Origin: Escherichia phage vB_EcoM-LTH02
Strand: one strand, 5' to 3'
Sequence record: PP430346
DNA length: 64,000 nt
Shown: positions 3,621 to 22,011 of the stretch, piece after piece
Position numbering within the stretch: position 1 is the stretch's first letter
How the letters are laid out: each line of letters begins with the position of its first letter
Notes under the pieces: model-generated
Databases searched by the model: none
Told to the model about the DNA's origin: nothing
What the model saw: the letters and a program-made list of their open reading frames with translations, nothing else
Program-made: the position numbers and the translations under genes

Positions 3621-3711
3621 ACAAGCCTGATAAAAGTCTGTAAATTGTCAATCAACGGGGAGGGAATGACCTTCCCCACTAAGTAAAGTCCTTAAACTAG
3701 GAGATTCTAAA

Positions 3712-4053: not shown

Positions 4054-4274
4054 TCAATAACTTACAAAAAACTTTTAAAAAGATGTTGACAATCCCTCTT
4101 GACATTGGTAACTTTGTTCGAGGGGGTTATCTAAAAGGGATTAACTTAAAAGATTCTTTATAGATAGACTTAAAAAATTGCTTGCAATCAGATATCAAAA
4201 CAAGTAAATTACTCATCAACGGGGAGGCAATAACCTCCCTACTAAGTAAAGTCCTTAAACTAGGAGATTCTAAA

Positions 4275-4805
4275 ATGAACAAGTTCAAAGCTATCAACTA
4301 TATTCGTTCAAATAATGTAATGTCTAAGCCTGTTAAAGATACCTATGAATTTCGTTGTAATGGGGTACACTTTGCAACCATTACCAAATCAGAAAACGGG
4401 GCTTATTACGTTCATCGTCGTAATGTTGCAACCGTTGTAGTCTCTCATTTTATGCAAGCTGTCGCGGAACTTCTCCCGATGTTTTTAGGTCTTTATTTAG
4501 ATGAGTGTAAAAACGTTCACAGCCACGTTAAAAACCTTTTAAACGGTTATAAAATGGCTTATGAACGTTCTATCAAGTCACTAAACAAGTTTTACAATGC
4601 ACCTGCAAATACTGTTTCAATAGCCTATGCTGCAAATGGTGAGATGGTAAACTTATCCAATGTGGAAGAAATCAAGCTGCATGATTTACGCCCTAGCGGT
4701 TACTCTAAGACTCTCGGTGAAGGTTTAACGTTCAATATCAAGAACTTAGAGAAAACTTTAAAAGATATTGAAAAAGATATTGACGAGACAATCAAAAATC
4801 TGTAA
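4275..4805 (+). CDS. hypothetical early protein (176 aa)
   Basis: ORF track 4182..4805; start moved to ATG at 4275 after conserved CTAGGAGATTCTAAA leader. Confidence 0.6.
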   Translation: MNKFKAINYIRSNNVMSKPVKDTYEFRCNGVHFATITKSENGAYYVHRRNVATVVVSHFMQAVAELLPMFLGLYLDECKNVHSHVKNLLNGYKMAYERSIKSLNKFYNAPANTVSIAYAANGEMVNLSNVEEIKLHDLRPSGYSKTLGEGLTFNIKNLEKTLKDIEKDIDETIKNL

Positions 4806-7161: not shown

Positions 7162-7767
7162 TTAAATCAGTGTTTCCAGAACTGTCTTCAGTGATGACTT
7201 GGTTGTCTGATAAAAATGAGTAAATCCATTGTTGTTATCGAATACCTGCATCATGATATCATCTCCCTTGATTGGGTACACTCGGATATCATAGTGGAAC
7301 CCGTTAAAGACAGCAGAACCATTACAGAATGAACTAAAGTCATCCACTGAGATGTACTCTTCGTGACCTGTGATTTTTATACAAACACCTTTACTCGGTC
7401 TCTTAGGGTTGATATCTTCCATCACAGACATACTCTGTCCACCAAGAGATATCATAGTGACCACTTTACGGTTCTTCTGTCTAAAGTACATCTTAACTTT
7501 CTGTAAAGTATCTTCATAGAACGGATAAGACCTTTCTACAAAGATTCCTTCAAGTGGCTCTTTACCATTTTCAACTTCTCTGTTATGCCGTACTGCAAAG
7601 ATAATTTGTTCAAACCAGTCAAGATTTTCTTCGGATAGTGCTTCCCGAACATCATTCCAGTCAAGTACTAGGTAGTTACCTTCAACATCTTTTGAGTTAT
7701 CTTTTTTCATATCTATTACACCATTATCGTAAAACTTGGTAAGCTGGAACTGCAAACTTGTTGCCAT
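7162..7767 (-). CDS. hypothetical protein (201 aa)
   Basis: ORF track; ATG start verified; overlaps upstream ORF by 44 nt, so the true start may be the internal Met near 7710. Confidence 0.5.
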   Translation of the reverse strand: MATSLQFQLTKFYDNGVIDMKKDNSKDVEGNYLVLDWNDVREALSEENLDWFEQIIFAVRHNREVENGKEPLEGIFVERSYPFYEDTLQKVKMYFRQKNRKVVTMISLGGQSMSVMEDINPKRPSKGVCIKITGHEEYISVDDFSSFCNGSAVFNGFHYDIRVYPIKGDDIMMQVFDNNNGFTHFYQTTKSSLKTVLETLI

Positions 7768-8188
7768 TGTTCTTAATGAGGTCTTCTTCTGTTACTAAGA
7801 ATGTAAGACCAAACAAATGTAAATAGGTGCTATCACACTCAAATATCTTAAATAGGTATTTACCGTCATGATAAACAAATTCTACTACACCTTTTGCAAC
7901 AACCTCTCCAGTCTTGAAATCTTTAAGGCAGTATACATTACCAACTTTAGGAACTGTTTTCATCTCAGGTTCTTTTAGCTTCTCACCAACTTCTACATCA
8001 CCTAGTAAGTTAGAACTTTCAAAAGCTACATGTTGCATATAAGCCTCTGAGCATTCCCAGATAAAACAATGTACAAGAACCTTAGCTGCATGTCTTGAAC
8101 AATTCAACTTATCACAAATCTCTTTGTACATTTCATCTTTAGTTGAGTTATCAAGCATTGCTTTTTGAGCGACTTCTTTAATTTTCAT
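7724..8188 (-). CDS. hypothetical protein (154 aa)
   Basis: ORF track; ATG start verified. Confidence 0.5.
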   Translation of the reverse strand: MKIKEVAQKAMLDNSTKDEMYKEICDKLNCSRHAAKVLVHCFIWECSEAYMQHVAFESSNLLGDVEVGEKLKEPEMKTVPKVGNVYCLKDFKTGEVVAKGVVEFVYHDGKYLFKIFECDSTYLHLFGLTFLVTEEDLIKNNGNKFAVPAYQVLR

Positions 8189-8241
8189 TTCGCTACCTTC
8201 TAAGTTTCTACAAAGGGGCTATCAAGTAACCCCTCAAGTTA

Positions 8242-8466
8242 TTACTCAGACTTTTCAGCCTTCTTATCGGATTTCTTACTAGTCTTCTTCTCAGCTTTCT
8301 GTTCAGGTTCCTTCTCAGAAGTTTCCTTGATAATCATATCAAGAAGCTCTGATAAGTCACTCTTCAGTAGAGTAACAGGCTGCTCATTGTAGAAGTTTTT
8401 GTCAAGATAATCTTTGAACTCTTCAATAGAAGGAAATCCAAAAATTGGTACAGGTGTCTTAATCAT
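8242..8466 (-). CDS. hypothetical protein with lysine-rich C-terminus (74 aa)
   Basis: ORF track; ATG start verified. Confidence 0.4.
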   Translation of the reverse strand: MIKTPVPIFGFPSIEEFKDYLDKNFYNEQPVTLLKSDLSELLDMIIKETSEKEPEQKAEKKTSKKSDKKAEKSE

Positions 8467-11858: not shown

Positions 11859-12991
11859 TATGCCTCCCCTGCTGGGTTAACTGTAACTGTTGCCGCATTA
11901 GATGTTACAGAGCCACCTGCACCAGTAACTACACAGGTGTAGCTTCCTGCGTCAGCAGTGGTTGCACCTTCTTTGGTGTAAGTTGCAGCAGTTGCGTCTA
12001 GGATGTCTTCCTCACCCTTCTTCCACTGATAACCTGTCGCACCAGTAGCCACAACATTCAGCGTTAAGGTCTCACCTTCAGTGATTTCTTGATTGGTTGG
12101 CTGCTGAGTGATAACTGGCAAAGCATTTACCGTGATTGTTGCAGGGTTAGAAGTAACAGAACCTCCAGCACCAGTTACAACACAAGTATATGAGCCTGCA
12201 TCTGCTGGCAGTGCACCAGACTTGCTATAGGTAGCATTTGTAGCTGAAGGGATGTCAGAGCCATCTTTCTTCCACTGGTAACCTGTTGCACCTGTTGCAG
12301 TCACTGATAGACTGATGTTTCCACCTTCATTAATGGTCTGGCTAGAAGGTTGCTGTGTAATCACAGGCAGTGCGTTAACAGTAACCGTTGCTGCATCTGA
12401 GGTGACACTTGTTCCACCCTCTCCAGATACAACACAAGTGTATGAACCAGCATCAGAAGGTGCTACGGATTGTTTTGTGTAAGTTGCAGAAGTGGCACTG
12501 GGGATGTCCTCACCATCCTTCTTCCACTGATATCCAGTGGCGTTAGTTGCTAGAACACTTAAAGTAAGTGTGCCACCCTCATTGACTGTTTGGCCTGTTG
12601 GTTGCTGAGTAATTGCTGGTGGCTTAATAGCATCCTTCAGCTTAGCATTCAACATTGAGAACGGCTTAACTCTTGCCAACCATTCACAATACACTGTGTC
12701 AACGTCTTTACCATTGATGATTGCATACTGTAAATCCATGAAGAAATCAGCAGTCCTCATCTGTGCACCAACACTGTAAAGGAGTTCATCACTAAAAGGA
12801 ACTTTGTAGTCTGGTTTGTAGTCAAACTTCGCAACCTCTGCAATATCAGCTTCAGGCCAATATGAGCTATAGGTTAGCGGTAAAATAGCTTCTTGATATG
12901 TTCTAAAATCATATCTCTTACCAGCCTTTACATTTGCAACGAAACCTTTTACAAATTCTTTGAAGTCTGGGTAAGTCTTTGCTTTAATCAT
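11858..12991 (-). CDS. protein with N-terminal domain plus three tandem Ig-like (I-set-like) domains
   Basis: Three roughly 80-aa repeats each with P.ITQQP...EG..L.V.ATGATGYQWKK.G.DI..AT.ATY.K...DAGSYTCVV.G.GGSVTS..AT.TVN; matching roughly 255-bp DNA repeats at about 12010, 12266, 12518. Confidence 0.7.
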   Translation of the reverse strand: MIKAKTYPDFKEFVKGFVANVKAGKRYDFRTYQEAILPLTYSSYWPEADIAEVAKFDYKPDYKVPFSDELLYSVGAQMRTADFFMDLQYAIINGKDVDTVYCEWLARVKPFSMLNAKLKDAIKPPAITQQPTGQTVNEGGTLTLSVLATNATGYQWKKDGEDIPSATSATYTKQSVAPSDAGSYTCVVSGEGGTSVTSDAATVTVNALPVITQQPSSQTINEGGNISLSVTATGATGYQWKKDGSDIPSATNATYSKSGALPADAGSYTCVVTGAGGSVTSNPATITVNALPVITQQPTNQEITEGETLTLNVVATGATGYQWKKGEEDILDATAATYTKEGATTADAGSYTCVVTGAGGSVTSNAATVTVNPAGEA

Positions 12992-13359
12992 TTCTTTTTA
13001 GCCTCTAAACGTGCGTTTAATCTAAAATAGCCTTTATGTTGTGGAGACACATCACTAACAACAATGCCTTCAACTTTATAACCCTTACCAATTACATACT
13101 GGATATCCATAAGAAACGTACCAAGCCCAACAATGTGGAACATTGGGTATAGCAACTTATCTGAATCTGGGAGTTTAATTTCTGGGTTATAGGTGGGTTG
13201 TTCGGCGGTTGGTGTAATATCCTCTTCAGGCCATTTACTCATTCTCCATGTTAAAGGTGATGCAATAACATCGTTAAGATTGTATCTTTCACCATTCTCC
13301 ACGGAGTGGATATAGGATTGTAGGAAGCAATAAAAGTCTTTTGCACTCTTAGCCTTCAT
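12988..13359 (-). CDS. paralog of the N-terminal domain of the Ig-like protein
   Basis: Shared motifs AK..DF..F......V..G.RY, WPE.DI, SD.LLY, F.MD.QY.I, LNA.L with the first about 130 aa of 11858..12991. Confidence 0.55.
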   Translation of the reverse strand: MKAKSAKDFYCFLQSYIHSVENGERYNLNDVIASPLTWRMSKWPEEDITPTAEQPTYNPEIKLPDSDKLLYPMFHIVGLGTFLMDIQYVIGKGYKVEGIVVSDVSPQHKGYFRLNARLEAKKK

Positions 13360-13997: not shown

Positions 13998-14224
13998 TTT
14001 TCAGTTCTCCTGCGATTTATGATTTTGCTGCAATAGAGAAACGAAGTAAACTCACTGGAAGAAACCATTAAGTGTTGTTCACTAGATTGAGCCATTGCCC
14101 TGAAATACATTCCAGTCAAAGCATCGTAGTGACTATTCTTTCCAATTGAGGTTATATAGCCATGACTCTTTGCAGTTTTATATAAATCTATAATATCTGC
14201 GATTTCTAATTGGGAACTACACAT
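13991..14224 (-). CDS. hypothetical protein (77 aa)
   Basis: ORF track; ATG start. Confidence 0.4.
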   Translation of the reverse strand: MCSSQLEIADIIDLYKTAKSHGYITSIGKNSHYDALTGMYFRAMAQSSEQHLMVSSSEFTSFLYCSKIINRRRTEKC

Positions 14225-14466
14225 AGATAATCCTCTTGTCTTCTGTAATTTTGAAAGAACAGGTACAGACCAATTTCAGAGGATGAATAGTAGAGTAACT
14301 CTACCCTTTTTGATTCCTTACAGTGATTGGTATTTTTACCTTTCTTCGGGTTGTTTGATTTTCTCATTAAGTCTCCTTTGTAGAACAAGGCAGACCTACA
14401 GCTTTAAGTAAGATGGTACAGTAATCCATACAACAAGTCAAGAACTATTGCAAGTTAAAAAAGTTG

Positions 14467-14490
14467 TTGACAAAGTACTTGACAAGGTGT
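14467..14490 (+). promoter_or_regulatory. conserved tandem-TTGACA motif TTGACAAAGTACTTGACAAGGTGT (copy 1)
   Basis: 23 of 24 identical to 56431-56454; both copies sit at minus-to-plus strand-switch regions 120-170 nt upstream of the first plus gene; TATAAATA at 14496-14503. Confidence 0.5.
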
Positions 14491-14616
14491 AGGCTTATAA
14501 ATACTTAGAAGATAACTTAAAAGGTTCCTCTAAAAAGGCTATTTAAACAGATATCTTTCTGGATATCTATCTTTTATCTTAAAAGCCTTTTAAGAGGTCT
14601 TATAAGAGGCATACCA

Positions 14617-14988
14617 ATGAAAAACAGAACAAACAAAGGCCAGTTTAAAAAAGGCCAGTCTGGAAACCCATCTGGAAGACCAAAAGGCTCTCGTAACAAA
14701 AGCTCACTCGTAAAAGCTCAACTGACCATTGATAATTCTGCTGAGTTCGCTGCAAAGCTGTTTGAGGCGATTGTTACAAGGGACGCGGCTAAGCTTGCAG
14801 AGTTCGGGTTAAACACAGATGACGTAACCATCAAGAGTATGATTGAGGTCGGTAAAACTATCTTTACTCACTCAGCAGGTGAGATGAAAGCACTTGCAGC
14901 AGACACTAAGAAGGCTCCTGATAATGGTGGTCAACAACAGACAGATAACAAACCAACGTTCTCTGCTGTAGCGACTCTCAAAAAATAA
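14617..14988 (+). CDS. hypothetical protein with N-terminal basic motif GQSGNPSGRPKGSRNK
   Basis: ORF track; SD AAGAGG 8 nt upstream of ATG. Confidence 0.55.
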   Translation: MKNRTNKGQFKKGQSGNPSGRPKGSRNKSSLVKAQLTIDNSAEFAAKLFEAIVTRDAAKLAEFGLNTDDVTIKSMIEVGKTIFTHSAGEMKALAADTKKAPDNGGQQQTDNKPTFSAVATLKK

Positions 14989-15000
14989 TTTTAAAAGGTG

Positions 15001-15035
15001 TTGACAGACTCTACAAAGTTGCTCTAAAGTCTGTC
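15001..15035 (+). promoter_or_regulatory. promoter (TTGACA-17/18-TAAAGT) overlapped by an 8-bp palindrome
   Basis: TTGACA 15001-15006; inverted repeat GACAGACT (15003-15010) / AGTCTGTC (15028-15035) could be an operator. Confidence 0.45.
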
Positions 15036-15069
15036 ACATCAAACAACAAATGAGAGAAGAGAGTAAAAT

Positions 15070-16485
15070 ATGAGCGAGTTATTTAAACATGCGCACCTTC
15101 ATGCAGGTCGAACTGAAAATGGTGCTGTAAACCATACTTCATCAATGTCTGCTCTGGTAGACTTCTACAAAGCCGCTGGCTCAAGCCGTAGTAATGTAGA
15201 AATCTTACCAGACCTGTTCTACAAAGCTTTGCGTGAGGATGTTGATGTTGCAGTTCGTATTTTACTGCATATGCGAGATGTACGAGAAGGTATGGGTGAG
15301 CGTAAAGCTTTCCGAACTGTTTTACTTCAAGCGATTGAAGATAAGTTTTTAGAGCCTACACAGGTTCTTCGCATTATGGATAAGATTGTAGAACTTGGTC
15401 GTTTTGATGACTTCAAAATCTTCATAGGTACTCGTTTTGAGACAGATGCCTTCAAACATTTAGAAGCAGCATTACTAGACCCTGCAACAGCAGGTTTAGC
15501 AGCTAAGTGGTTACCACGAGTAAAACCACGCCACAAACAGTTTGTAAAACGTTTCTGTAAGTTTGCAAACTTAAGCGAGAAAGAGTACCGCACACTGTTA
15601 TCTGCACTGTCTGATACGGTTGAGCAAAAAATCTCTGCTAATGAGTTTGGTAAGATTGACTACAGCAAGATTCCTTCACTCGCTGCTGCACGTTACCAAA
15701 AGCTCTTTAACCGTAAAGATGGGGAACGTTACAAAGCTTATATCGAGTCACTCTCAAAAGGTGAGGCTAAGATTAACGCTGGTGCTGTTTACCCATACGA
15801 TGTGATTAAATCTATTAAGTATGGTAATGCAGATGTTGCTAATGAGCAGTGGAAAGCACTTCCAAACTGGATGGCAGAAGGTGAAAACATCTTGTGTATG
15901 ACTGATGTTTCAAGCTCAATGTCTTGGGTGAATCTTGGCTCAATTACTGCCCTTGATATTGGTGTATCACTTGCCTTATATGTAGCAGAACGCAATACAG
16001 GTTGCTTTAAAGATGAGTTAATGGTCTATTCAACAAACCCTCATTTCATTGAACTGAGTGGTGATTTACGAAACCGTCATCGTCAGGTAATGCGTCATGT
16101 TGAATATGGTTCAACTAACTTACAAGCAGCTTTTGACCGTATTCTTGAGATAGGTAAGAGAAACAACTTGACTCAGAAAGATATGCCAAGTAAGCTTATC
16201 ATCTTCTCCGATATGGAGTTCAATCAGGTTGATGGAGCTAACGGTCGTACAAACTTTGAAGCAATTCAGAGTAAGTACAAAAAAGCTGGATATGAGATGC
16301 CACAACTAGTATTCTGGTACTTAGCAAACCGTAATGGTACTTGCGAAGTGTCTGTTAAGGATAATGGTGTAGCAATGGTATCAGGGTTCTCTCCAGCCAC
16401 TTTAAAAGCTCTGCTTGGTGGTGAGAAGTTTGACCCAATCAGCGTAATGCTCAAAGCAGTAATGATTGACCGTTACATCTGGTAA
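15070..16485 (+). CDS. vWA-domain protein with MIDAS motif, possibly Ro60/TROVE-like
   Basis: 471 aa; MIDAS D-x-S-x-S in ILCMTDVSSSMS followed by a vWA-like C-terminal region; N-terminal helical region with TENGAV...SALVDFY; gene lies immediately upstream of the tRNA array. The vWA call is from sequence; the Ro60/TROVE assignment is from my memory of the family and its position, not a search. Confidence 0.55.
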   Translation: MSELFKHAHLHAGRTENGAVNHTSSMSALVDFYKAAGSSRSNVEILPDLFYKALREDVDVAVRILLHMRDVREGMGERKAFRTVLLQAIEDKFLEPTQVLRIMDKIVELGRFDDFKIFIGTRFETDAFKHLEAALLDPATAGLAAKWLPRVKPRHKQFVKRFCKFANLSEKEYRTLLSALSDTVEQKISANEFGKIDYSKIPSLAAARYQKLFNRKDGERYKAYIESLSKGEAKINAGAVYPYDVIKSIKYGNADVANEQWKALPNWMAEGENILCMTDVSSSMSWVNLGSITALDIGVSLALYVAERNTGCFKDELMVYSTNPHFIELSGDLRNRHRQVMRHVEYGSTNLQAAFDRILEIGKRNNLTQKDMPSKLIIFSDMEFNQVDGANGRTNFEAIQSKYKKAGYEMPQLVFWYLANRNGTCEVSVKDNGVAMVSGFSPATLKALLGGEKFDPISVMLKAVMIDRYIW

Positions 16486-16495
16486 AAAGTTTTAA

Positions 16496-16527
16496 AAAGG
16501 GTATTGACAATGTGTTTGATACCCTTT
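16496..16527 (+). promoter_or_regulatory. hairpin (AAAGGGTAT/ATACCCTTT) after the vWA gene with an embedded TTGACA
   Basis: 9-bp inverted repeat enclosing TTGACA at 16504-16509. Confidence 0.4.
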
Positions 16528-16594
16528 AATATGTTCTACATAGAAACGAAATGAGAGCTTTTCTAAGATACTGAAAAATATTTTAAAAAAGTTC

Positions 16595-16623
16595 TTGACA
16601 ACCACTAAAAAATAATGTTAAAG
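16595..16623 (+). promoter_or_regulatory. candidate promoter of the tRNA operon (TTGACA-17-TTAAAG)
   Basis: TTGACA 16595-16600, 17-nt spacer, weak -10 TTAAAG; first tRNA begins at 16651; flanked by inverted repeat AACCACT/AGTGGTT. Confidence 0.45.
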
Positions 16624-16650
16624 TGGTTACATAGAGTTTGAAAAGTTTAT

Positions 16651-16727
16651 CTCTGTTTAGCTCAGCTTGGTAGAGCGTTCCGTTTGGGGCGGTAAGGCCG
16701 GAGGTTCAAGTCCTCCAACAGAGACCA
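16651..16727 (+). tRNA. tRNA-Pro (anticodon TGG)
   Basis: Cloverleaf by eye: acceptor CTCTGTT/AACAGAG, D GCTC..GAGC, anticodon loop TTTGGGG, T-arm GGAGG-TTCAAGT-CCTCC, CCA encoded. Confidence 0.75.
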
Positions 16728-16734
16728 AATTAAT

Positions 16735-16812
16735 GTTCCAGTAGACAAAATGGTAAAGTCACCACTCTTTCAAAGTGGATATTTGAGGGTTCAAATCCCT
16801 TCTGGAACGCCA
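16735..16812 (+). tRNA. tRNA-Glu (anticodon TTC)
   Basis: Acceptor GTTCCAG/CTGGAAC, anticodon stem CCACT/AGTGG with loop CTTTCAA, T-loop TTCAAAT, CCA encoded. Confidence 0.75.
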
Positions 16813-16819
16813 GTTTTGA

Positions 16820-16892
16820 CAGAAGACCAATTGCAGCAAACTTAATCTTATTCATCTGACACGAAATCGGACAAAGAAGAGATTTGGTCTGG
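16820..16892 (+). ncRNA. structured element of the AGACC/GGTCT stem family (a)
   Basis: 5' CAGAAGACCAA-TTGCAGCAA ... TTGGTCTGG 3'; terminal 7-bp stem AGACCAA/TTGGTCT; lies between tRNA-Glu and tRNA-Met. Confidence 0.45.
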
Positions 16893-16903
16893 TCATTAAG
16901 AAT

Positions 16904-16980
16904 TGCGGGTATAGAGAAAGGGCGTCTCACATGTCTCATTAGCATGGTATCGGCAGGTTCGACTCCTGCACCCGCCTCCA
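16904..16980 (+). tRNA. tRNA-Met-like (anticodon CAT), irregular
   Basis: Anticodon stem CATGT/GCATG with loop CTCATTA, D-stem GAGA/TCTC, T-arm GCAGG-TTCGACT-CCTGC, 3' ACCCGCC-T-CCA; the acceptor pairs only with a T1/C72 mismatch or an extra nucleotide before the D-stem. Confidence 0.5.
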
Positions 16981-16986
16981 ATTTTG

Positions 16987-17046
16987 CAGAAGACCGTATT
17001 CAGCAACAAACTACTTTTTGCGGATAAAAGAAAAAACACGGTCTGG
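16987..17046 (+). ncRNA. structured element of the AGACC/GGTCT stem family (b)
   Basis: CAGAAGACCG-TATTCAGCAA ... CGGTCTGG; stem uses CG where elements a and c use CAA/TTG (compensatory change). Confidence 0.45.
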
Positions 17047-17057
17047 CAATGTATTAA

Positions 17058-17134
17058 GGTTAGGAAGCACATAAGGTATGTGCGGTCGCCTGTTAAGCGA
17101 ATGGCACAGGGTTCGAATCCCTGACTAACCGCCA
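17058..17134 (+). tRNA. tRNA-Asn (anticodon GTT)
   Basis: Acceptor GGTTAGG/ACTAACC, D GCAC..GTGC, loop CTGTTAA, T-arm CAGGG-TTCGAAT-CCCTG, G-CCA. Confidence 0.75.
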
Positions 17135-17143
17135 AATTTAAAT

Positions 17144-17231
17144 GTGTCGTTATCCCGTAGATGGTAGCGGTGGGGACTGTAAATCCCTTGTCATTGAGAC
17201 TCGGTAGGTTCGACTCCTACACGGCACACCA
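17144..17231 (+). tRNA. tRNA-Tyr (anticodon GTA), class II
   Basis: Acceptor GTGTCGT/ACGGCAC, loop CTGTAAA, long variable arm, T-arm GTAGG-TTCGACT-CCTAC, A-CCA. Confidence 0.7.
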
Positions 17232-17237
17232 AATAAA

Positions 17238-17315
17238 GGTTATGTAGTTTAATCTGGTTAAAATACTCCCCTGTCACGGGAGATGATGAGGGTTCAAATC
17301 CCTTCGTAACCGCCA
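17238..17315 (+). tRNA. tRNA-Asp (anticodon GTC)
   Basis: Acceptor GGTTATG/CGTAACC, anticodon stem CTCCC/GGGAG with loop CTGTCAC, T-loop TTCAAAT, G-CCA. Confidence 0.75.
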
Positions 17316-17402
17316 AATTATAATAAGTATTTCAAGATGATGTTTTGAGAGGGCTATTTAGCCCCTCCCTTAAAGAGTTCTTACGAGTATTCTTTAAAGG
17401 AG

Positions 17403-17479
17403 CAGAAGACCAAATTCAGCAAGTACGTATGATATTTTCAAGCCAATTTAATTTTGAAAAAATTTAAAACTTGGTCTGG
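17403..17479 (+). ncRNA. structured element of the AGACC/GGTCT stem family (c)
   Basis: CAGAAGACCAA-ATTCAGCAAG ... TTGGTCTGG; internal hairpin TTTTCAA...TTGAAAA. Confidence 0.45.
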
Positions 17480-17492
17480 CTCAACAAATTTA

Positions 17493-17624
17493 CAGAAGAC
17501 CGTTTACAGCAAAACTTAAACAATCTATTTCTCCGGTAAAGAAAAGGCGAAGGTTCGATTCCTTCACTCGGCAGATGTCGAGTTGGTGTAATGGTAGCAC
17601 TTAAGATGATAAACAACGGTCTGG
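17493..17624 (+). ncRNA. YrlA-like (Y-RNA-like) candidate: terminal stem plus circularly permuted tRNA-like module
   Basis: Terminal stem AGAAGACCGTT (17495-17504) / AACGGTCT (17615-17622); inside, in this order: hairpin TTTCT-CCGGTAA-AGAAA (17528-17544), canonical T-arm GAAGG-TTCGATT-CCTTC (17549-17565), closed acceptor-like stem ACTCGGC-AGAT-GTCGAGT (17566-17583), D-arm GTGT-AATGGTA-GCAC (17586-17600). Confidence 0.55.
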
Positions 17625-17631
17625 TAATTAT

Positions 17632-17763
17632 CTTTGTAGATAAGTTATTAAGCTTACCTGTGAGTATGCGACCACAAAGGGTGAAAGGGTAAATTCTAGA
17701 TTTAAACCCAACAAGGCACATCGCTACAGACCTTAAGCAAGTCTGGGTAGCTTATCTACAAAG
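17632..17763 (+). ncRNA. structured region closed by a 13-bp long-range inverted repeat
   Basis: CTTTGTAGATAAG (17632-17644) pairs with CTTATCTACAAAG (17751-17763); encloses hairpin CAGACC-TTAAGCAA-GTCTGG (17726-17745). Confidence 0.4.
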
Positions 17764-17773
17764 ATAATTTAAT

Positions 17774-17849
17774 GGAAGTGTAGCAGAATGGTGATGCGGC
17801 AGACTTTTAATCTGACAGGCGATGGGTTCGAATCCCTCCACTTCTACCA
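17774..17849 (+). tRNA. tRNA-Lys (anticodon TTT)
   Basis: Acceptor GGAAGTG/CACTTCT, loop CTTTTAA, T-loop TTCGAAT, A-CCA; T-stem weak (3 bp). Confidence 0.65.
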
Positions 17850-17853
17850 ATAT

Positions 17854-17930
17854 GGTTCAGTCGCAGATAAGGTAATGCAAGGGTCTCATAAACCCTATGA
17901 ATGTGGGTTCGATTCCCATCTGAACCTCCA
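17854..17930 (+). tRNA. tRNA-Met or Ile2 (anticodon CAT)
   Basis: Acceptor GGTTCAG/CTGAACC, anticodon stem AGGGT/ACCCT with loop CTCATAA, T-arm GTGGG-TTCGATT-CCCAT, T-CCA. Confidence 0.75.
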
Positions 17931-17931
17931 A

Positions 17932-18007
17932 GCTGGTATAGTTAAGAAGGTTATAACACTCCCCTGATAAGGGAACATCGGTGGTTCGATTCCACCTACC
18001 AGTACCA
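17932..18007 (+). tRNA. tRNA-Ile (anticodon GAT)
   Basis: Acceptor GCTGGTA/TACCAGT, D GTTA..TAAC, loop CTGATAA, T-arm GGTGG-TTCGATT-CCACC, A-CCA. Confidence 0.75.
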
Positions 18008-18022
18008 ATTTCAATAAAGTTG

Positions 18023-18051
18023 TTGACATTGAGATGTGACCACTTTATAGT
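18023..18051 (+). promoter_or_regulatory. internal promoter in the tRNA region (TTGACA-17-TATAGT)
   Basis: TTGACA 18023-18028, 17-nt spacer, TATAGT 18046-18051; about 200 nt non-tRNA leader follows before tRNA-Arg. Confidence 0.6.
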
Positions 18052-18254
18052 AACCTTAGTTTTCGTTGCGTAGCGTCTATTTTGCAAATTTAAAATAAAT
18101 GCAAACGACAATGTTTTTCTGGCAGTAGCTTGATAGGCTAAACACCAGTGAGGTCTTCCAATCCCTCATCAAAGAATTTGGCGTACTCGCCCACGGTATG
18201 ATTAATAAGGTGGGCATCTTTAAGGGCTTTCTAAGAGAGTCTTTAAAGATTAAT

Positions 18255-18331
18255 GCACCCTTAGTTCAATTGGATAGAGCAACGGTCTTCTAAATCGTTA
18301 GTTACAGGTTCGAATCCTGTAGGGTGTGCCA
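18255..18331 (+). tRNA. tRNA-Arg (anticodon TCT)
   Basis: Acceptor GCACCCT/AGGGTGT, D GTTC..GAGC, loop CTTCTAA, T-arm ACAGG-TTCGAAT-CCTGT, G-CCA. Confidence 0.75.
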
Positions 18332-18473
18332 AATAGTTAGCAGATTGCTTAGACGACCTTATCGGGTCTCCGTGTAAGGAGGTGGTCTGTATCTCATGTT
18401 TTCCAGAACATGTAAATAATCTGAGAAGGGGCTTTACAGTGTTGCGAAAATACGGTAAGCTTCGAATTATAGT

Positions 18474-18556
18474 GTGGGACGATGTTAAGACTCTAAGGCA
18501 TGAGCAACGGCCTCCAAAACCGTTTCAAAGGGGTTCAACTCCTCCGTCCCATGCCA
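18474..18556 (+). tRNA. tRNA-like, possibly Trp (anticodon CCA), irregular
   Basis: Acceptor GTGGGAC/GTCCCAT, T-arm AGGGG-TTCAACT-CCTCC, G-CCA; anticodon arm ACGGC-CTCCAAA-ACCGT; 9 nt instead of 2 between acceptor and D-stem, total 83 nt. Confidence 0.4.
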
Positions 18557-18569
18557 AAGTCTTATTAGG

Positions 18570-18659
18570 GGTAGGTAGCGGCTAATGGTAGCCAAACTGT
18601 CTTGAAAACAGTTGCCACTGTAGAGATACGGTGAGGGTTCGACTCCTTTACTTACCGCC
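18570..18659 (+). tRNA. tRNA-Ser (anticodon TGA), class II
   Basis: Acceptor GGTAGGT/ACTTACC, anticodon stem ACTGT/ACAGT with loop CTTGAAA, long variable arm, T-arm GAGGG-TTCGACT-CCTTT; 3' end reads G-CC-T, so CCA is not fully encoded. Confidence 0.7.
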
Positions 18660-18814
18660 TAATAAGATTTAAAGCCAAGCTTCATTCGGATGTTGCTTTG
18701 GTATCCCTCGTGTATTGTCGTACACGCACAGTAAAGCACCTAGTAGGTGTCACGGAGAAGAGATAATATCAAGCTCTCCAAAGGTTCTAGTCACCGGATT
18801 AAACAAGACTATGC

Positions 18815-18836
18815 AAAGACCAAATTAGGTCTTTTT
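18815..18836 (+). terminator. terminator-like hairpin using the AGACC/GGTCT stem
   Basis: AAAGACC-AAATTA-GGTCTTT followed by TT. Confidence 0.4.
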
Positions 18837-18915
18837 AGAGGGCTTCTAAGGTTATTACAGCTTGTTGTGGAACCTTGTTGCTTAGGTTCTTAGAAGTTCT
18901 CTAAAAAGATTTAAT

Positions 18916-18992
18916 GCACCTATAGCCCAATTGGTAGAGGCAGCAGACTTAGAATCTGCTCAGTGTGAGTTCGAATCTCTCTAGGTGTACCA
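18916..18992 (+). tRNA. tRNA with anticodon TAG (Leu by anticodon; short variable arm)
   Basis: Acceptor GCACCTA/TAGGTGT, anticodon stem GCAGA/TCTGC with loop CTTAGAA, T-loop TTCGAAT, A-CCA; 77 nt. Confidence 0.65.
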
Positions 18993-18999
18993 AATTAAT

Positions 19000-19075
19000 G
19001 CAGGTGTAGCAAAATGGTTATGCGGCTGACTCTTAATCAGTAAGACGATGGGTTCAATTCCCTCCACCTGTACCA
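19000..19075 (+). tRNA. tRNA-Lys (anticodon CTT)
   Basis: Acceptor GCAGGTG/CACCTGT, loop CTCTTAA, T-loop TTCAATT, A-CCA; paralog of tRNA-Lys(TTT). Confidence 0.65.
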
Positions 19076-19081
19076 AACATT

Positions 19082-19157
19082 GGGGATGTAGTTTACATGG
19101 TTAAAACATAAGTTTTGCAAACTTAAGTACAGGGTTCAATTCCCTGCTTCTCCACCA
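19082..19157 (+). tRNA. tRNA-Ala (anticodon TGC)
   Basis: D GTTT..AAAC, anticodon stem TAAGT/ACTTA with loop TTTGCAA, T-arm CAGGG-TTCAATT-CCCTG, 3' CTTCTCC-A-CCA. Confidence 0.7.
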
Positions 19158-19163
19158 ATTAGT

Positions 19164-19238
19164 GCATCCATAGTTTAAACGGGAAAATTACAGTCTTCCA
19201 AACTGAGGTTGAGGGTTCGATTCCCTCTGGATGCTCCA
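19164..19238 (+). tRNA. tRNA-Gly (anticodon TCC)
   Basis: Acceptor GCATCCA/TGGATGC, loop CTTCCAA, T-arm GAGGG-TTCGATT-CCCTC, T-CCA. Confidence 0.75.
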
Positions 19239-19244
19239 AACAAT

Positions 19245-19321
19245 GCTGCTTTCGTATAATTGGCTATTACACATCCCTTGTAAGGATGGAAATGCAGGTT
19301 CGAGTCCTGTGAGCAGCACCA
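19245..19321 (+). tRNA. tRNA-Thr (anticodon TGT)
   Basis: Acceptor GCTGCTT/GAGCAGC, anticodon stem CATCC/GGATG with loop CTTGTAA, T-loop TTCGAGT, A-CCA. Confidence 0.75.
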
Positions 19322-19325
19322 ATTC

Positions 19326-19411
19326 AGAGGTCAAGTGAAAGACCGCTGGTGTCAACTGAAGACCGTAACAAATTCCACGGAGTTGAGTTAGCGGCACAAC
19401 TTCAGACCTCT
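19326..19411 (+). ncRNA. multi-stem structured element between tRNA-Thr and the next tRNA
   Basis: Nested stems AGAGGTC (19326-19332) / GACCTCT (19405-19411); CCGCT (19343-19347) / AGCGG (19390-19394); TCAACT (19352-19357) / AGTTGA (19381-19386); apical loop carries GAAGACCGTAACAAATTCC, related to the 5' arms of elements a-d. Confidence 0.45.
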
Positions 19412-19416
19412 TCCAT

Positions 19417-19491
19417 ACTCGCTTAGTTTATATGGTAAAACACCACCCTTACAAGATGAAGAAAAAGGTTCAAGTCCTTTAGTGAGTACCA
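19417..19491 (+). tRNA. tRNA-like, anticodon probably TAC (Val); weak anticodon stem
   Basis: Acceptor ACTCGCT/AGTGAGT, D GTTT..AAAC, T-arm AAAGG-TTCAAGT-CCTTT, A-CCA; anticodon region CCACC-CTTACAA-GATGA forms only 3 of 5 pairs. Confidence 0.45.
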
Positions 19492-19492
19492 T

Positions 19493-19570
19493 GTTCCAGT
19501 ATCCCAATTGGCAGAGGATGCAAGCTCAAACCTTGTACTAGTGACGGTTCGAATCCGTCTTGGAACACCA
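19493..19570 (+). tRNA. tRNA with anticodon CAA (Leu by anticodon; short variable arm)
   Basis: Acceptor GTTCCAG/TTGGAAC, anticodon stem GCAAG/CTTGT with loop CTCAAAC, T-arm GACGG-TTCGAAT-CCGTC, A-CCA. Confidence 0.65.
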
Positions 19571-19575
19571 ATTTT

Positions 19576-19651
19576 GCAGGATTAGTTCAAATGGATAGAG
19601 CAACAGTCTACGAAGCTGTTAATAGGGGTTCGAATCCCTTATCCTGCGCCA
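19576..19651 (+). tRNA. tRNA-Arg (anticodon ACG)
   Basis: Acceptor GCAGGAT/ATCCTGC, D GTTC..GAGC, loop CTACGAA, T-loop TTCGAAT, G-CCA. Confidence 0.75.
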
Positions 19652-19670
19652 ATTTAAAGAGGCTATTTAG

Positions 19671-20228
19671 ATGAGATATTTGAAGTATGCTTCATGGATT
19701 TTCTTAGCTTTGTTAGAGCCATTTGCAGCAATCTTAGCAGTTATCTTAGCACCTTTCGTAGTTCCATTTTACAGTGAGAAGAAAGGACACTTACCTTTCG
19801 GATTTAGATGGATGGAAACTTACGACAACCCGATTGATGGTGATGAAGGTCACGTCAAACGATGGGCTAAGATTAGAAAGATTGGTAAGCTTGGTATCTA
19901 TATGCAGAGAGTCGGTTGGCTCTGGAGAAACAAAGCTTATAACTTCTCTTATCATGTGTTAGGAAGAGATGTGAAAGATGTTACTAAGTGGAAAGGTAAT
20001 ATTAATGTAAGTTCTAACCCTGAAGATAATCAGACAGGTTATCTCCTAATGTGGAACAGTAATGCTTGGGGATTATTCGCTTTTATCCCATCAATTAAAG
20101 TCTTTGGTAAACAATTCTACTGGAGAATTTATGTTGGATGGAAACTTAAAAGTGTTGTCCCAAAAGAAAGAGCATTCTCAAGGGAAAGAGTTATGTTGGC
20201 ATTCTTTATTCATCCACTAAGAAAGTAA
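19671..20228 (+). CDS. hypothetical Trp-rich membrane-anchored protein embedded in the tRNA array (185 aa)
   Basis: ATG at 19671 with SD in AAGAGGCTATTTAG; N-terminal hydrophobic helix WIFLALLEPFAAILAVILAPFVV. Confidence 0.55.
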   Translation: MRYLKYASWIFLALLEPFAAILAVILAPFVVPFYSEKKGHLPFGFRWMETYDNPIDGDEGHVKRWAKIRKIGKLGIYMQRVGWLWRNKAYNFSYHVLGRDVKDVTKWKGNINVSSNPEDNQTGYLLMWNSNAWGLFAFIPSIKVFGKQFYWRIYVGWKLKSVVPKERAFSRERVMLAFFIHPLRK

Positions 20229-20236
20229 AGATTTAA

Positions 20237-20312
20237 AGGGGATTAGTTTACAAGGTTAAAACCTCGGTCTTTGAAATCGAAGAAGTTGGTTCAATTCCAA
20301 CATCCCCCGCCA
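20237..20312 (+). tRNA. tRNA-Gln (anticodon TTG)
   Basis: Acceptor AGGGGAT/ATCCCCC (A1/C72 mismatch), D GTTT..AAAC, anticodon stem TCGGT/ATCGA with loop CTTTGAA, T-arm GTTGG-TTCAATT-CCAAC, G-CCA. Confidence 0.7.
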
Positions 20313-20314
20313 AT

Positions 20315-20393
20315 GCTCCATTACTCCAATTGGCAGAGAGGCCAGACTTAAAATCTGTGTTATGTATCGGTTCGAATCCGATATGGAGTACCA
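20315..20393 (+). tRNA. tRNA with anticodon TAA (Leu by anticodon; short variable arm)
   Basis: Acceptor GCTCCAT/ATGGAGT, loop CTTAAAA, T-arm ATCGG-TTCGAAT-CCGAT, A-CCA. Confidence 0.6.
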
Positions 20394-20398
20394 AATTT

Positions 20399-20474
20399 AG
20401 CGGTATAGCATAACTGGCAATGCAGCAGTCTCTGAAGCTGTCTTATTAAGGTTCAAATCCTTATGCCGCTGCCA
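20399..20474 (+). tRNA. tRNA-Gln (anticodon CTG)
   Basis: Acceptor AGCGGTA/TGCCGCT, D GCAT..ATGC, loop CTCTGAA, T-arm TAAGG-TTCAAAT-CCTTA, G-CCA. Confidence 0.7.
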
Positions 20475-20505
20475 CTTCTAAGGGTTCTTACGAGAGTCCT
20501 TAAAT

Positions 20506-20581
20506 GTGGCCTTATCATAAAAGGTAATGACCCATGCTGTGAACATGGTCTATACGGGTTCAAATCCCGTAGGTCACCCCA
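20506..20581 (+). tRNA. tRNA-His (anticodon GTG)
   Basis: Acceptor GTGGCCT/AGGTCAC, D TCAT..ATGA, anticodon stem CCATG/CATGG with loop CTGTGAA, T-arm ACGGG-TTCAAAT-CCCGT, discriminator C then CCA. Confidence 0.75.
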
Positions 20582-20586
20582 ATTTA

Positions 20587-20663
20587 TAGTCCAAGTAGCT
20601 TATATGGTTAAAGCGCGTGTCTGAAAAACATGAGAAGAGGGTTCAAATCCCACTGGACTACCA
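20587..20663 (+). tRNA. tRNA-Phe-like (anticodon GAA), irregular acceptor/D junction
   Basis: D GCTT..AAGC, anticodon stem CGTGT/ACATG with loop CTGAAAA, T-loop TTCAAAT; acceptor TAGTCCA/TGGACTA pairs perfectly but leaves a nonstandard junction and 3' end. Confidence 0.55.
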
Positions 20664-20679
20664 ATTTCAAAGGTGCTTA

Positions 20680-21414
20680 ATGAAAGAGATGACAGAACAA
20701 GGTAAGGAGATTTTTAATCTCTTAAAAACCGGTAGAGGGTTTTCTAATCCCCTTATTACTGGTGCAGCAGTTCTCGGTGGAACCGTAGCTGCCTCTACAT
20801 CACTTGTAAGCTCTATTAGCTCTGTAACAGACCCTACAATAAAAGATAAGCTTATTGCTGCTGGACTTACAACAGTTCTGCTTAATAGCTTTACAACGAG
20901 TCTGACAAGCACTACATCAACCACTAAGACATTGACAGATTACGGTCAAAAATCAATTGATGAGTTTTCATCACGTATGCAGGTAGCAAAAGGATATTCC
21001 AATGTTATGGGTGCAGCAGGAGAGCAAGTTGGTTGTACACCATTTAGTGGTATTATGGGTGTTGCTACAGAGTATGGTCAAAAAGCTATTGACACAATTA
21101 ACAGCACACTAGACAGTGTTAACGGTGTGTTAAGTGACTTACAGGATGCTATTGATGAAGGTCTTGATACCATTTCTGATTTAGCTAACCAAGCTGTTAG
21201 CAAGATTAATGAAGGTATCTCAAAGATTACAGCTTATGCAGATGAAGTTGTGCAGATGATTGAAGAAGAAGCTGCCCTTATTGCAGAGTACCTTAAAACG
21301 AATATCAATGGGTTCTTAGCAGGTATCTTACCAGACTGGTTTGATGATGCTTGTAAAACTGGTGTAATTGATACTATTGCAACACCAGAAATGAAGAACG
21401 CATTACAGAAATAA
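20680..21414 (+). CDS. hypothetical Ser/Thr-rich protein (244 aa)
   Basis: ORF track 20617..21414 starts at GTG inside tRNA-Phe; moved to ATG at 20680; stop lies 1 nt before tRNA-Ser(GCT). Confidence 0.55.
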   Translation: MKEMTEQGKEIFNLLKTGRGFSNPLITGAAVLGGTVAASTSLVSSISSVTDPTIKDKLIAAGLTTVLLNSFTTSLTSTTSTTKTLTDYGQKSIDEFSSRMQVAKGYSNVMGAAGEQVGCTPFSGIMGVATEYGQKAIDTINSTLDSVNGVLSDLQDAIDEGLDTISDLANQAVSKINEGISKITAYADEVVQMIEEEAALIAEYLKTNINGFLAGILPDWFDDACKTGVIDTIATPEMKNALQK

Positions 21415-21415
21415 T

Positions 21416-21508
21416 GGAAGATTAACCCTAAAAGGTAAGGGAGCAGTTTGCTAAACTGCCAGTAGCTGAGAAATCGGTGTACCAGTTCAAGTCTGGTATC
21501 TTCCTCCA
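21416..21508 (+). tRNA. tRNA-Ser (anticodon GCT), class II
   Basis: Acceptor GGAAGAT/ATCTTCC, anticodon stem GCAGT/ACTGC with loop TTGCTAA, long variable arm, T-arm ACCAG-TTCAAGT-CTGGT, T-CCA. Confidence 0.7.
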
Positions 21509-21512
21509 ATTT

Positions 21513-21588
21513 GAATCCGTGACAGAAATGGCTATGTGCCTGTCTGCAAAACAGGTTTATAAGGGTTCGAGTCCCTTCGGATTCTCCA
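21513..21588 (+). tRNA. tRNA-Cys (anticodon GCA)
   Basis: Acceptor GAATCCG/CGGATTC, anticodon stem CCTGT/ACAGG with loop CTGCAAA, T-arm AAGGG-TTCGAGT-CCCTT, T-CCA. Confidence 0.75.
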
Positions 21589-21625
21589 AGTTATTTTACT
21601 CTCTCTCAATTAAAATAATAATAAT

Positions 21626-21686
21626 GCCCTGCTATAAGTATTCTTCCTTTCGCTACCGAAGAGTATTTTTAGACAGGGCTTTTTTA
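21626..21686 (+). terminator. intrinsic terminator after the tRNA array
   Basis: GCCCTG ... CAGGGC stem followed by TTTTTT; a second hairpin GACGGT-CTCTGT-ACCGTC plus TTTTTT lies at about 21752-21775. Confidence 0.55.
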
Positions 21687-21810
21687 CAGAGTTATACTTT
21701 ATAAGAAGACTTATACAGTATGTCTCTGACGTACATTGTGGTTTCTCCTTGACGGTCTCTGTACCGTCTTTTTTAAGGGGAAACATGGTTAATTATTTGG
21801 AGAAAACATA

Positions 21811-22011
21811 ATGAGCGAGACCGTTTACAAAGAACTTTATGAAGCTAATAAGAAGCTGGAATTTATGCAGAATACTATTATGGCAATTGCAGACAGATTA
21901 TCTGTAGCAACAGGTATTGATATTAAAGAAGCATCTATGGATGCACTTCTTGATGCTGTTGATGCAAAGTTCGAAGTTAAGAAAGAAGAGACTGCTACAG
22001 ACTCTGAATAA
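21811..22011 (+). CDS. hypothetical protein (66 aa) upstream of large terminase
   Basis: ORF track; SD GGAGAAAAC; position is compatible with, but does not establish, a small terminase subunit. Confidence 0.45.
   Translation: MSETVYKELYEANKKLEFMQNTIMAIADRLSVATGIDIKEASMDALLDAVDAKFEVKKEETATDSE

Follow-up and report, generated by a model that had tools for sequence, protein, structure and literature searches.

A tRNA-mimic RNA and three short paralogues form a candidate set of Y-RNA-like RNAs beside a Ro60-like gene of Escherichia phage vB_EcoM-LTH02

The closest described relatives of the element reported here are the bacterial YrlA RNAs, Y RNAs that mimic tRNA; in Mycobacterium smegmatis, YrlA is a substrate of RNase P and of CCA addition (PMC4201824). 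A model for the origin of such RNAs starts from dimeric tRNAs, with the T arm taken from the first of two tandem tRNAs and the D arm from the second, and the same paper alludes to circularly permuted tRNA genes (10.1101/312249). Among phages, the Ro60 protein of Thermus phage phiLo binds phage Yrl RNAs and the host PNPase (PMC12135203). In phage Bas63, the structurally Ro60-like protein gp130 is encoded directly upstream of a tRNA stretch and counters the Ppl defence, and the authors of that PhageMaP study went only as far as to suggest that "some tRNA genes are possibly Y RNAs" (PMC11482910). Here we analyzed 64,000 nucleotides of Escherichia phage vB_EcoM-LTH02, a phage of the Felix O1 type (record PP430346; this whole stretch is called the window), in which a first-pass annotation made from the letters alone had read positions 17493-17624 as a YrlA-type Y RNA. 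We propose that this 132-nt RNA on the + strand, which we call unit 4, is the one tRNA mimic in a set of four Y-RNA-like small RNAs that lie in the phage tRNA array directly downstream of the gene for a Ro60-like DUF2828/DUF7788 ring protein. To this reading, with its predicted binding of a common handle and its predicted effector role, we assign a probability of about 0.7.

Unit 4 combines a handle with a circularly permuted tRNA body. Its ends form an 8-bp terminal stem, AGACCGTT (17497-17504) with AACGGTCT (17615-17622), that can be read directly in the sequence and is present in the minimum free energy (MFE) fold. The 5' half of the handle (17497-17512) consists of the stem strand AGACCGUU (17497-17504) and an unpaired box, UACAGCAA (17505-17512); the 3' half (17615-17624) is AACGGUCU followed by GG. 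Between them lie, in order, an anticodon-arm-like or variable hairpin, UUUCU-CCGGUAA-AGAAA (17528-17544, with AGGC running on to 17548), a T arm, GAAGG-UUCGAUU-CCUUC (17549-17565), a 7-bp acceptor-like hairpin, ACUCGGC-AGAU-GUCGAGU (17566-17583), whose 4-nt loop AGAU carries no CCA, and a segment (17584-17600) composed of a U8-like UG linker and the D arm GUGU-AAUGGUA-GCAC (17586-17600). The terminal stem and the four internal elements listed in the first-pass annotation were all found where it had placed them and in the order it had claimed, and the MFE fold of the element contains every one of these helices. The nucleotides that build a tRNA elbow are present as the T loop UUCGAUU, the D loop AAUGGUA and the linker UG (UA in most homologues), and the equivalent of the Levitt pair is a non-canonical A15-C48. 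A 4-bp inner helix, AUCU/AGAU (17523-17526 with 17604-17607), is also possible and could close a five-way junction; its counterparts are AUCU/AGAU in Klebsiella phage FBKp34 and AUUUA/UAAAU in phage Moogle, and the MFE fold of the window prefers CUUA/UAAG. This inner helix may stand in for the anticodon stem.

In its native order, 17493-17624 is called as a tRNA by neither ARAGORN nor Rfam; the Rfam tRNA model matches only part of it, the anticodon and T arms, at 22 bits. When the two halves were re-joined in silico at the D/anticodon junction and CCA was added, ARAGORN called a complete tRNA-Thr(GGU), and the de-permuted counterparts from three distant phages were called as Thr-GGU, Ser-GCU and Asn-GUU. 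Because the re-joined sequences are called as complete tRNAs, "circularly permuted tRNA body" is an accurate description. The earlier statement that this cannot be a conventional tRNA gene likewise holds. The folding stability of unit 4 was not beyond chance (z = -1.85, with 12 of 200 shuffles equally stable). Single-sequence stability being unremarkable, the case for the element therefore rests on comparative data.

For this comparison we used nine Ounavirinae (Felixounavirus, Mooglevirus and Suspvirus), from which we built covariance model R1; unit 4 scores 137 bits with R1 and 109 bits with a second model, R2, described below. Across the nine phages the T and D arms are invariant save for one D-loop base, and the acceptor-like stem exists in three complementary versions (ACUCGGC/GUCGAGU, ACACGUU/GGCGUGU and ACCCUUC/GAAGGGU) with loops of different lengths, none containing CCA. 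Beyond the Ounavirinae, R1 found full-length homologues in Mycobacterium phage LilDestine, Klebsiella phage FBKp34, Bacillus phage Izhevsk and many metagenomic phages. In an alignment of 34 matches, 95.4% of cells were paired, compared with 63% in shuffles and about 40% in slid-partner controls, and 25 of the 28 pairs showed double-sided changes. The terminal stem, T arm, acceptor-like stem and D arm were each 97-100% paired. All 7 terminal-stem pairs had changed on both sides, as had 7 of 7 pairs of the acceptor-like stem (97% paired; loop of 4 to about 19 nt) and 4 of 5 in the T arm (98%); the D arm was 100% paired, and the linker before it is U plus A or G in most members. The variable hairpin was the least conserved helix (75-80% paired). 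The compensatory changes in homologous phage regions that the first-pass annotation had proposed to look for, among them the three acceptor-stem versions, were thus present. Collectively, these sequence comparisons indicate that unit 4 is a real, conserved, structured RNA and neither a tRNA gene nor a relic of one.

The ends of unit 4 recur three more times in the window. Exact copies of CAGAAGACC lie at 16820, 16987, 17403 and 17493 and exact copies of GGTCTGG at 16886, 17040, 17473 and 17618, all on the + strand, and these motif pairs define four stem-closed RNAs of 73, 60, 77 and 132 nt. Unit 1 (16820-16892, +), CAGA-AGACCAA-UUGCAGCAA...UUGGUCU-GG, lies between tRNA-Glu and tRNA-Met (R2 score 33.5 bits, E 1e-5); unit 2 (16987-17046, +), CAGA-AGACCGU-AUUCAGCAA...ACGGUCU-GG, lies between tRNA-Met and tRNA-Asn (33.6 bits); and unit 3 (17403-17479, +) is CAGA-AGACCAA-AUUCAGCAA...UUGGUCU-GG (31.0 bits with filters off). 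All four units have the layout CAGA-AGACC(NN)-(U)NCAGCAA...(NN)GGUCU-GG, with an unpaired UNCAGCAA box after the stem, and the paralogues show covariation at the two variable stem pairs (AA/UU versus GU/AC). Only unit 4 carries a tRNA body. Run over 14000-22000 with filters off, R2 returned the four units as its top four matches, and all weaker ones overlapped real tRNAs. Unit 3 is kept in all nine aligned Ounavirinae, and unit 1 in Moogle, SUSP2, ESh22 and the related locus L013. Across 47 distinct family members the handle has the consensus WWWA-AGRWUNN-UUWCAGCAAW...NNAWYCU-G-N; C15, G17, C18, A19 and A20 of the box are conserved in at least 94% of the sequences, G6 of the stem in 94%, and C286, U287 and G288 on the 3' side in 87-94%, the window's tail being CUGG and those elsewhere CUGU or CUGA. 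As a separate observation, positions 6003-6148 of the FBKp34 locus hold a 114-nt "tRNA-Asp" (47.7 bits with the Rfam tRNA model, 37.8 bits with the family model) whose insert of about 40 nt contains UUUUACAGCA; it may be a tRNA that carries, or is fused to, a handle-like unit.

The gene upstream of these RNAs (15070-16485, +) encodes a 471-aa protein with an N-terminal helical-repeat ring and a C-terminal von Willebrand factor A (vWA) domain that has the residues of a MIDAS (metal ion-dependent adhesion site). The first-pass annotation had noted a vWA/MIDAS gene about 1 kb upstream; the stop of this open reading frame (ORF) lies 1008 nt before unit 4, on the same strand. Pfam assigned the protein to DUF7788 (2.5e-43) and DUF2828 (2.8e-29), with a weak VWA_2 match and none to TROVE, and PHROG 850, "RNA-binding protein", matches it as well. 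A fold search was needed because phmmer found no match for the protein in the PDB at E<=10. With an AlphaFold2 model (predicted local distance difference test score 81), the top ten Foldseek matches in the PDB were all Ro60, Rsr or TROVE structures, with E values from 4e-10 to 4.5e-7, about 510-565 aligned columns and TM scores of 0.51-0.63, which covers essentially the whole chain; they include the Ro60 of Thermus phage phiLo, Deinococcus radiodurans Rsr, and Xenopus and human Ro60. The predicted fold is thus Ro60/Rsr-like over its full length, as the earlier suggestion of a TROVE-like fold would have it, and the Pfam family is a different one. The MIDAS residues D279, S281, S283, T349 and D381 (DxSxS...T...D) are invariant in 34 homologues. 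By tblastn, the DUF2828 family is present in 709 phage records, and its mycobacteriophage members are annotated as "Ro-like RNA binding protein"; the best 120-150 matches listed in the protein searches were all from phages. Literature searches on DUF2828, UCP015417 and PF11443 returned incidental plant and tardigrade mentions only, and one linking Felix O1 with "Ro-like" found nothing. Bas63 being a Felixounavirus, we infer from genus and gene position that gp130 is orthologous to the product of 15070-16485.

We next consider the linkage between RNA and protein genes. Model R2 was run, at E<=0.01, over 77 loci centred on the Ro-like protein and drawn from IMG/VR, GenBank and Logan. It gave 54 matches, all on the strand of the gene; 51 are not tRNA; they are spread over 33 loci, and for 44 the gene is no more than 1.6 kb away. 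The other three (locus L019, 854-983 and 2609-2736; L085, 8384-8522) were removed as artefacts of dimeric tRNAs, a known class of false positives (PMC4201824), and a model match in L013 (8648-8788) proved to be a real tRNA-Ile. In LilDestine the RNA starts 98 nt past the Ro-like stop codon. As this locus has no tRNA genes and the RNA still stands beside the gene, the association is with the protein and not with tRNA arrays. The FBKp34 match adjoins the Ro-like gene, the Izhevsk match lies 2.2 kb upstream inside a tRNA array, and at least 30 metagenomic phages have matches beside the gene. The RNA family therefore follows the Ro-like gene closely, in place as well as strand, from one unrelated phage to another. 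Other neighbours of the Ro-like gene in these phages encode RNA ligases, RtcB, a CCA-adding enzyme and phosphoesterases, and one DUF2828-bearing phage contig (L084) contains a full-length transfer-messenger RNA (tmRNA; 12792-13235, 81.5 bits).

How close is unit 4 to YrlA? Like YrlA, it has a T arm, a closed acceptor-like stem-loop of variable length, a U-purine linker and a D arm, all within a stem formed by the 5' and 3' ends, together with the conserved elbow nucleotides (T loop UUCRANY, GG in the D loop and the U-purine linker). It also lies about 1 kb from a Ro60-fold gene on the same strand, where about 4 kb has been the criterion, with the same linkage in 33 loci, and it is accompanied by shorter sibling RNAs, as YrlA is by YrlB. 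YrlA itself is bound by Rsr/Ro60 and modified by TruB and DusA. However, the GNCGAAN0-1G box that YrlA has near its 5' end (PMC4201824), presumably contacted by Ro60, is absent: next to the 5' stem strand unit 4 has UACAGCAA and the family UWCAGCAA. The sole GGCGAAG in unit 4 stands at the junction of the variable and T stems and is not kept in ESh22 or Moogle. YrlA opens the tRNA at the anticodon loop and lacks the hairpin (10.1101/312249), its anticodon stem running on into the stem that binds Ro, whereas unit 4 is opened at the D/anticodon junction and keeps an anticodon-arm-like hairpin, the 5-bp form of which, with a 7-nt loop, is present in the window, SUSP2, LilDestine and L014. This retained arm fits the tandem-tRNA origin model (10.1101/312249). 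Unit 4 further differs in that its partner is a DUF2828/DUF7788 protein, not TROVE, and that it shares a phage tRNA array with three paralogues consisting of the handle only. The search with Infernal and the Rfam YrlA and Y_RNA models that the first-pass annotation had proposed gave, at gathering and E-value thresholds, fragmentary tRNA only; on two homologues the YrlA model RF02553 gave full-length, significant matches (39.6 and 38.2 bits) below its gathering score of 69. Since the GNCGAA motif and the Rfam threshold both failed, we conclude that unit 4 would work like YrlA but is a distinct, new Y-RNA-like subfamily with another handle and a DUF2828-type partner. The label "YrlA-type" was thus apt for the architecture and the Ro-type gene context and wrong for the family. 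It was right in kind, and the four paralogues and the different opening point had gone unnoticed.

The resemblance extends to the Y RNAs of metazoans and Deinococcus and to phiLo Yrl1 and Yrl2, small RNAs in which a Ro60-binding terminal stem is joined to a variable effector module and several paralogues lie beside the Ro gene (PMC12135203); for the units described here such binding is predicted. Those RNAs, by contrast, carry a GGUCCGA/CGAA bulged-helix motif and no complete tRNA body and are bound by a canonical TROVE-type Ro60 (PMC12135203). We found no description in the literature of the four RNAs reported here.

Upon the observed anatomy, covariation, paralogy, protein fold and genomic linkage we place a conditional model. 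The four RNAs would be co-transcribed with the tRNAs and freed by tRNA-processing nucleases, and the Ro-like ring would then bind the stem and CAGCAA handle. By analogy with the Rsr-YrlA and Rsr-Yrn1-PNPase particles, the variable body would serve as the effector module; in unit 4, an L-shaped tRNA mimic could recruit or occupy a factor that recognizes tRNA, candidates being an exoribonuclease, RNase P, CCA-adding or modification enzymes or a host tRNA-directed defence factor. The system may thereby act in tRNA and RNA quality control or in counter-defence during infection.

Several points weigh against this model. Rescue of plaquing on a Ppl strain takes no more than gp130, supplied on a plasmid or inserted in T7 (PMC11482910), and because gp130 suffices the Ppl phenotype has no need of phage RNAs. 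R2 matches occur in only 33 of the 77 loci. The canonical Ro-binding GNCGAA box is absent, the 5' region of unit 4 being CAGAAGACCGUUUACAGCAA, and RF02553 has no match in 17300-17790 at E<=10. Locus L013, whose protein is 63% identical, has units 1-3 at 7748-8422 without unit 4, so unit 4 is dispensable, or has been lost, in some lineages. The covariation alignment was fitted to the model, which somewhat inflates the pair counts (the contrast with the controls is large), and many matches come from related contigs and are not independent. Finally, the four RNAs are known here from their sequences, and their expression, ends and binding are predicted.

Of the alternatives, the one that survives best, though we consider it unlikely, is that unit 4 is a tRNA decoy or sponge that acts alone or with a non-Ro protein to soak up a tRNA-targeting host defence nuclease or modification enzyme, its handle serving stability or processing only. 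The complete tRNA elbow would suit this role, as would an anticodon-like loop, CUGNUAA, that recurs in distant phages. The element also sits in an array of 26 tRNAs, which is thought to counter tRNA-directed defences, and gp130 acts on Ppl without the RNAs (PMC11482910). However, a decoy leaves unexplained why three paralogues without a body have the same handle and why the RNAs track the strand and distance of the Ro-like gene, including in tRNA-free loci.

We regard as quite improbable the idea that the conserved stems are cis-acting spacers of a polycistronic tRNA precursor, working as processing or folding insulators, and that tandem duplication of tRNAs left the tRNA-like part behind as a by-product. 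Units 1 and 2 do fill tRNA-tRNA spacers, starting 6-8 nt past a CCA and stopping 11 nt short of the next tRNA, and the dimeric-tRNA origin model for YrlA fits the order of the parts (10.1101/312249). But the same RNAs stand beside the Ro-like gene of LilDestine with no tRNA nearby, the unpaired CAGCAA box is kept in phages whose hosts belong to different bacterial phyla, and the tRNA-like body covaries strongly over the same range.

A shade more improbable still is a circularly permuted tRNA gene, in which RNase P and 3' processing would open the acceptor loop, CCA would be added, and a nicked, two-piece tRNA-Thr(GGU) held together by the terminal stem would be charged and take part in translation. 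Permuted tRNA genes are known from the red alga Cyanidioschyzon merolae and its relatives, and two-piece tmRNA is made from permuted ssrA genes. As in permuted tRNA genes, the 3' half of unit 4 precedes the 5' half, the acceptor ends are joined by a short linker and all four arms are present. Undoing the permutation yields a sequence that ARAGORN accepts as a full tRNA in each of four distant phages, the 7-bp acceptor stem has G1-C72 with an A at the discriminator position, several homologues have a textbook C-U-NNN-A-A loop, and M. smegmatis YrlA offers a precedent for RNase P cleavage and CCA tailing (PMC4201824). Against this, the "anticodon" varies among homologues (GGU, GUU, GCU, AUA), the loops being CCGGUAA in the window, which thus has C33 and not U33, CUGGUAA in SUSP2 and Sf13, CUGUUAA in LilDestine, CUGCUAA in L014 and, also within the Ounavirinae, CUAUAAA; a hairpin with a 5-nt loop takes its place in Moogle and HP1, and other homologues have none. 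Permuted tRNA genes, by contrast, have a fixed anticodon and identity and pass through a circular intermediate, with a splicing endonuclease, which bacteria lack, acting at a bulge-helix-bulge. The ends of unit 4 are a plain 8-bp helix, and the handle to which it belongs is common to three RNAs without a tRNA body. Its 4-nt acceptor loop has no CCA, whereas the neighbouring tRNA-Asp gene (17238-17315) encodes CCA and the 75-78-nt ARAGORN spans of most other array tRNAs also fit an encoded CCA. Moreover, the acceptor-like hairpin is missing from some family members, the linkage to the Ro-like gene holds even in a tRNA-free locus, and the phage already has a tRNA-Thr(UGU).

Hardly credible, finally, is a decayed tRNA remnant, an alternative already named in the first-pass annotation, or a part of the minus-strand ORF 17464-17721 (85 aa, overlapping the RNA and annotated as a hypothetical protein in wV8, UAB_Phi87 and other GenBank records): Rfam does score only fragmentary tRNA, but every helix shows compensatory changes over a wide phylogenetic range, and six relatives with intact RNA structure (Moogle, SUSP2, Sf13, HP1, ESh22 and mistaenkt) have the ORF broken to 38 aa or fewer or lack it. 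Judged by this comparison, the ORF is probably a spurious gene call. No rival accounts for the common handle together with the protein linkage.

The handle also resembles the ends of an RNA class from social amoebae. The dictyostelid Class I RNAs are 42-65 nt long and have their ends joined by a 6-bp stem; they show an invariant 5' G, an 11-nt box, CCUUACAGCAA, by the 5' stem strand and a 3' CUGU, and have been reported as unique to Dictyostelia (PMC7919456). The Rfam consensus (RF01414; gathering score 41.5 bits) is GaUcuC-CUUACAGCAAU...GagAuC-UG. Correspondingly, the phage RNAs have a 6-8-bp end stem with a basal G-C pair, then (CC)UUACAGCAA, and CUG-N after the 3' strand; the near-invariant U3, C6, C9, A10 and A11 are all in the phage handle, the body is variable, and the short units measure about 60 nt. 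The box of unit 4, GUUUACAGCAA, agrees with the Class I box at 9 of 11 positions, units 1-3 have UUGCAGCAA or AUUCAGCAA, and exact CCUUACAGCAA occurs in phage units of loci L043, L047, L053 and L012. RF01414 aligned over its full length to 13 phage units beside the Ro-like gene, with scores of 15.5-29.6 bits that for 12 units were at least 21 bits; among the 13 are unit 2 of the window (21.4 bits), three FBKp34 units (25.2, 23.6 and 15.5 bits), L043 (28.2 bits), L053 (25.4 bits) and five units of Aeromonas phage LAh_6 (L012; 21.0-29.6 bits). All these matches are on the strand of the gene and, tRNA aside, RF01414 ranks first among the families in those loci. LAh_6 has, at 2991-3898, a tandem array of at least five stem-plus-CAGCAA units of about 55-63 nt immediately upstream of its DUF2828 gene.

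We conclude that the resemblance of the handle to Class I RNAs is statistically real, with homology, transfer and convergence all possible sources. No phage unit reaches the RF01414 gathering score of 41.5 bits (the best is 29.6), and unit 4, at 132 nt, is longer than the 42-65 nt of the class. The Class I RNAs, moreover, are eukaryotic, have their own promoter with a Dictyostelium upstream sequence element (DUSE), are known to be bound by the RRM protein Rnp1A and never carry a tRNA-like body, whereas the phage copies lie in a bacterial-type tRNA operon. No paper that we found joins Dictyostelium with TROVE or Ro60. As a possible but doubtful extension, the stem-(CC)UUACAGCAA-CUG handle could be the recognition element of DUF2828-type Ro-like proteins and define a widespread, unannotated class of phage Y-like RNAs, bare or with a permuted tRNA, of which the abundant Class I RNAs would be the eukaryotic members.

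The surroundings of the units bear on their transcription and annotation. The 458-nt stretch 17316-17773, which matches Felixounavirus genomes (UAB_Phi87, ekra and others) at 99.8% identity, forms a gap within the 26-gene tRNA array, and this array begins about 165 nt past ORF 15070-16485. Before the first tRNA, a consensus scan found two sigma-70-like promoter matches (16504-16532 and 16595-16624, +; 10/12 each), the overall count of such matches not being above that in shuffles, so that their support is positional; no + strand terminator-like site was found between them and 18007. Together these features fit, by position, co-transcription with the tRNAs, and the transcript with the four RNAs probably starts at the promoter-like sites in 16504-16624. 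GenBank records ASO1B, REP5 and REP11 carry a 129-nt tRNA-Thr-GGT from tRNAscan-SE (about 17445-17573 in the window; 2466-2594 in locus L001). This tRNA with a long insert was rejected: its 5' acceptor strand pairs poorly, and GTCGAGT just downstream pairs perfectly, and the annotation is an artefact of the permuted tRNA body. A recent duplicate of a resident tRNA was rejected as well, there being no close match among the 26 tRNAs.

Two other structured segments flank the units. Between unit 4 and tRNA-Lys lies a 145-nt RNA (17626-17770, +; z = -5.4) with a stem of about 24 bp around a branched top and no CAGCAA handle. Rfam has no match for it. Comparison of Felix-type with Moogle/SUSP-type phages showed compensatory changes at 5 closing-stem pairs and at 11 of 47 predicted pairs overall, and L013, which lacks unit 4, has the long hairpin too. 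Between tRNA-Asp and unit 3, a GC-rich hairpin, GAGAGGGC-UAUUU-AGCCCCUC (17347-17402, +), is kept with a conserved flank in 9 of 9 Ounavirinae and is not called as a terminator. In some relatives, HNH homing-endonuclease genes lie between array tRNAs (in phage mistaenkt, L008, at 1855-2283 and 4087-4539); these insertions account for two-piece BLAST matches and differences in array length.

For the biology of these phages, our findings point, by exact coordinates, to candidate Y RNA partners of Felixounavirus gp130, at which the PhageMaP authors had only guessed. They indicate that the DUF2828 family, with its 709 phage records found by tblastn, comes with its own conserved RNA family, one that Rfam lacks and that GenBank records mislabel as a 129-nt tRNA-Thr or a minus-strand ORF. 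Ranging naturally from bare handles to a handle that carries a tRNA mimic, the units offer a set in which the use of RNA adaptors by Ro-type rings can be taken apart, and a form that still retains the anticodon arm supports a dimeric-tRNA origin of tRNA-like Y RNAs. They also raise a testable link to the dictyostelid Class I RNAs, whose mechanism is a long-standing question; if that link is true, it would mean shared ancestry of, or transfer between, the phage RNAs and the Class I RNAs, and possibly a Ro-like partner in amoebae.

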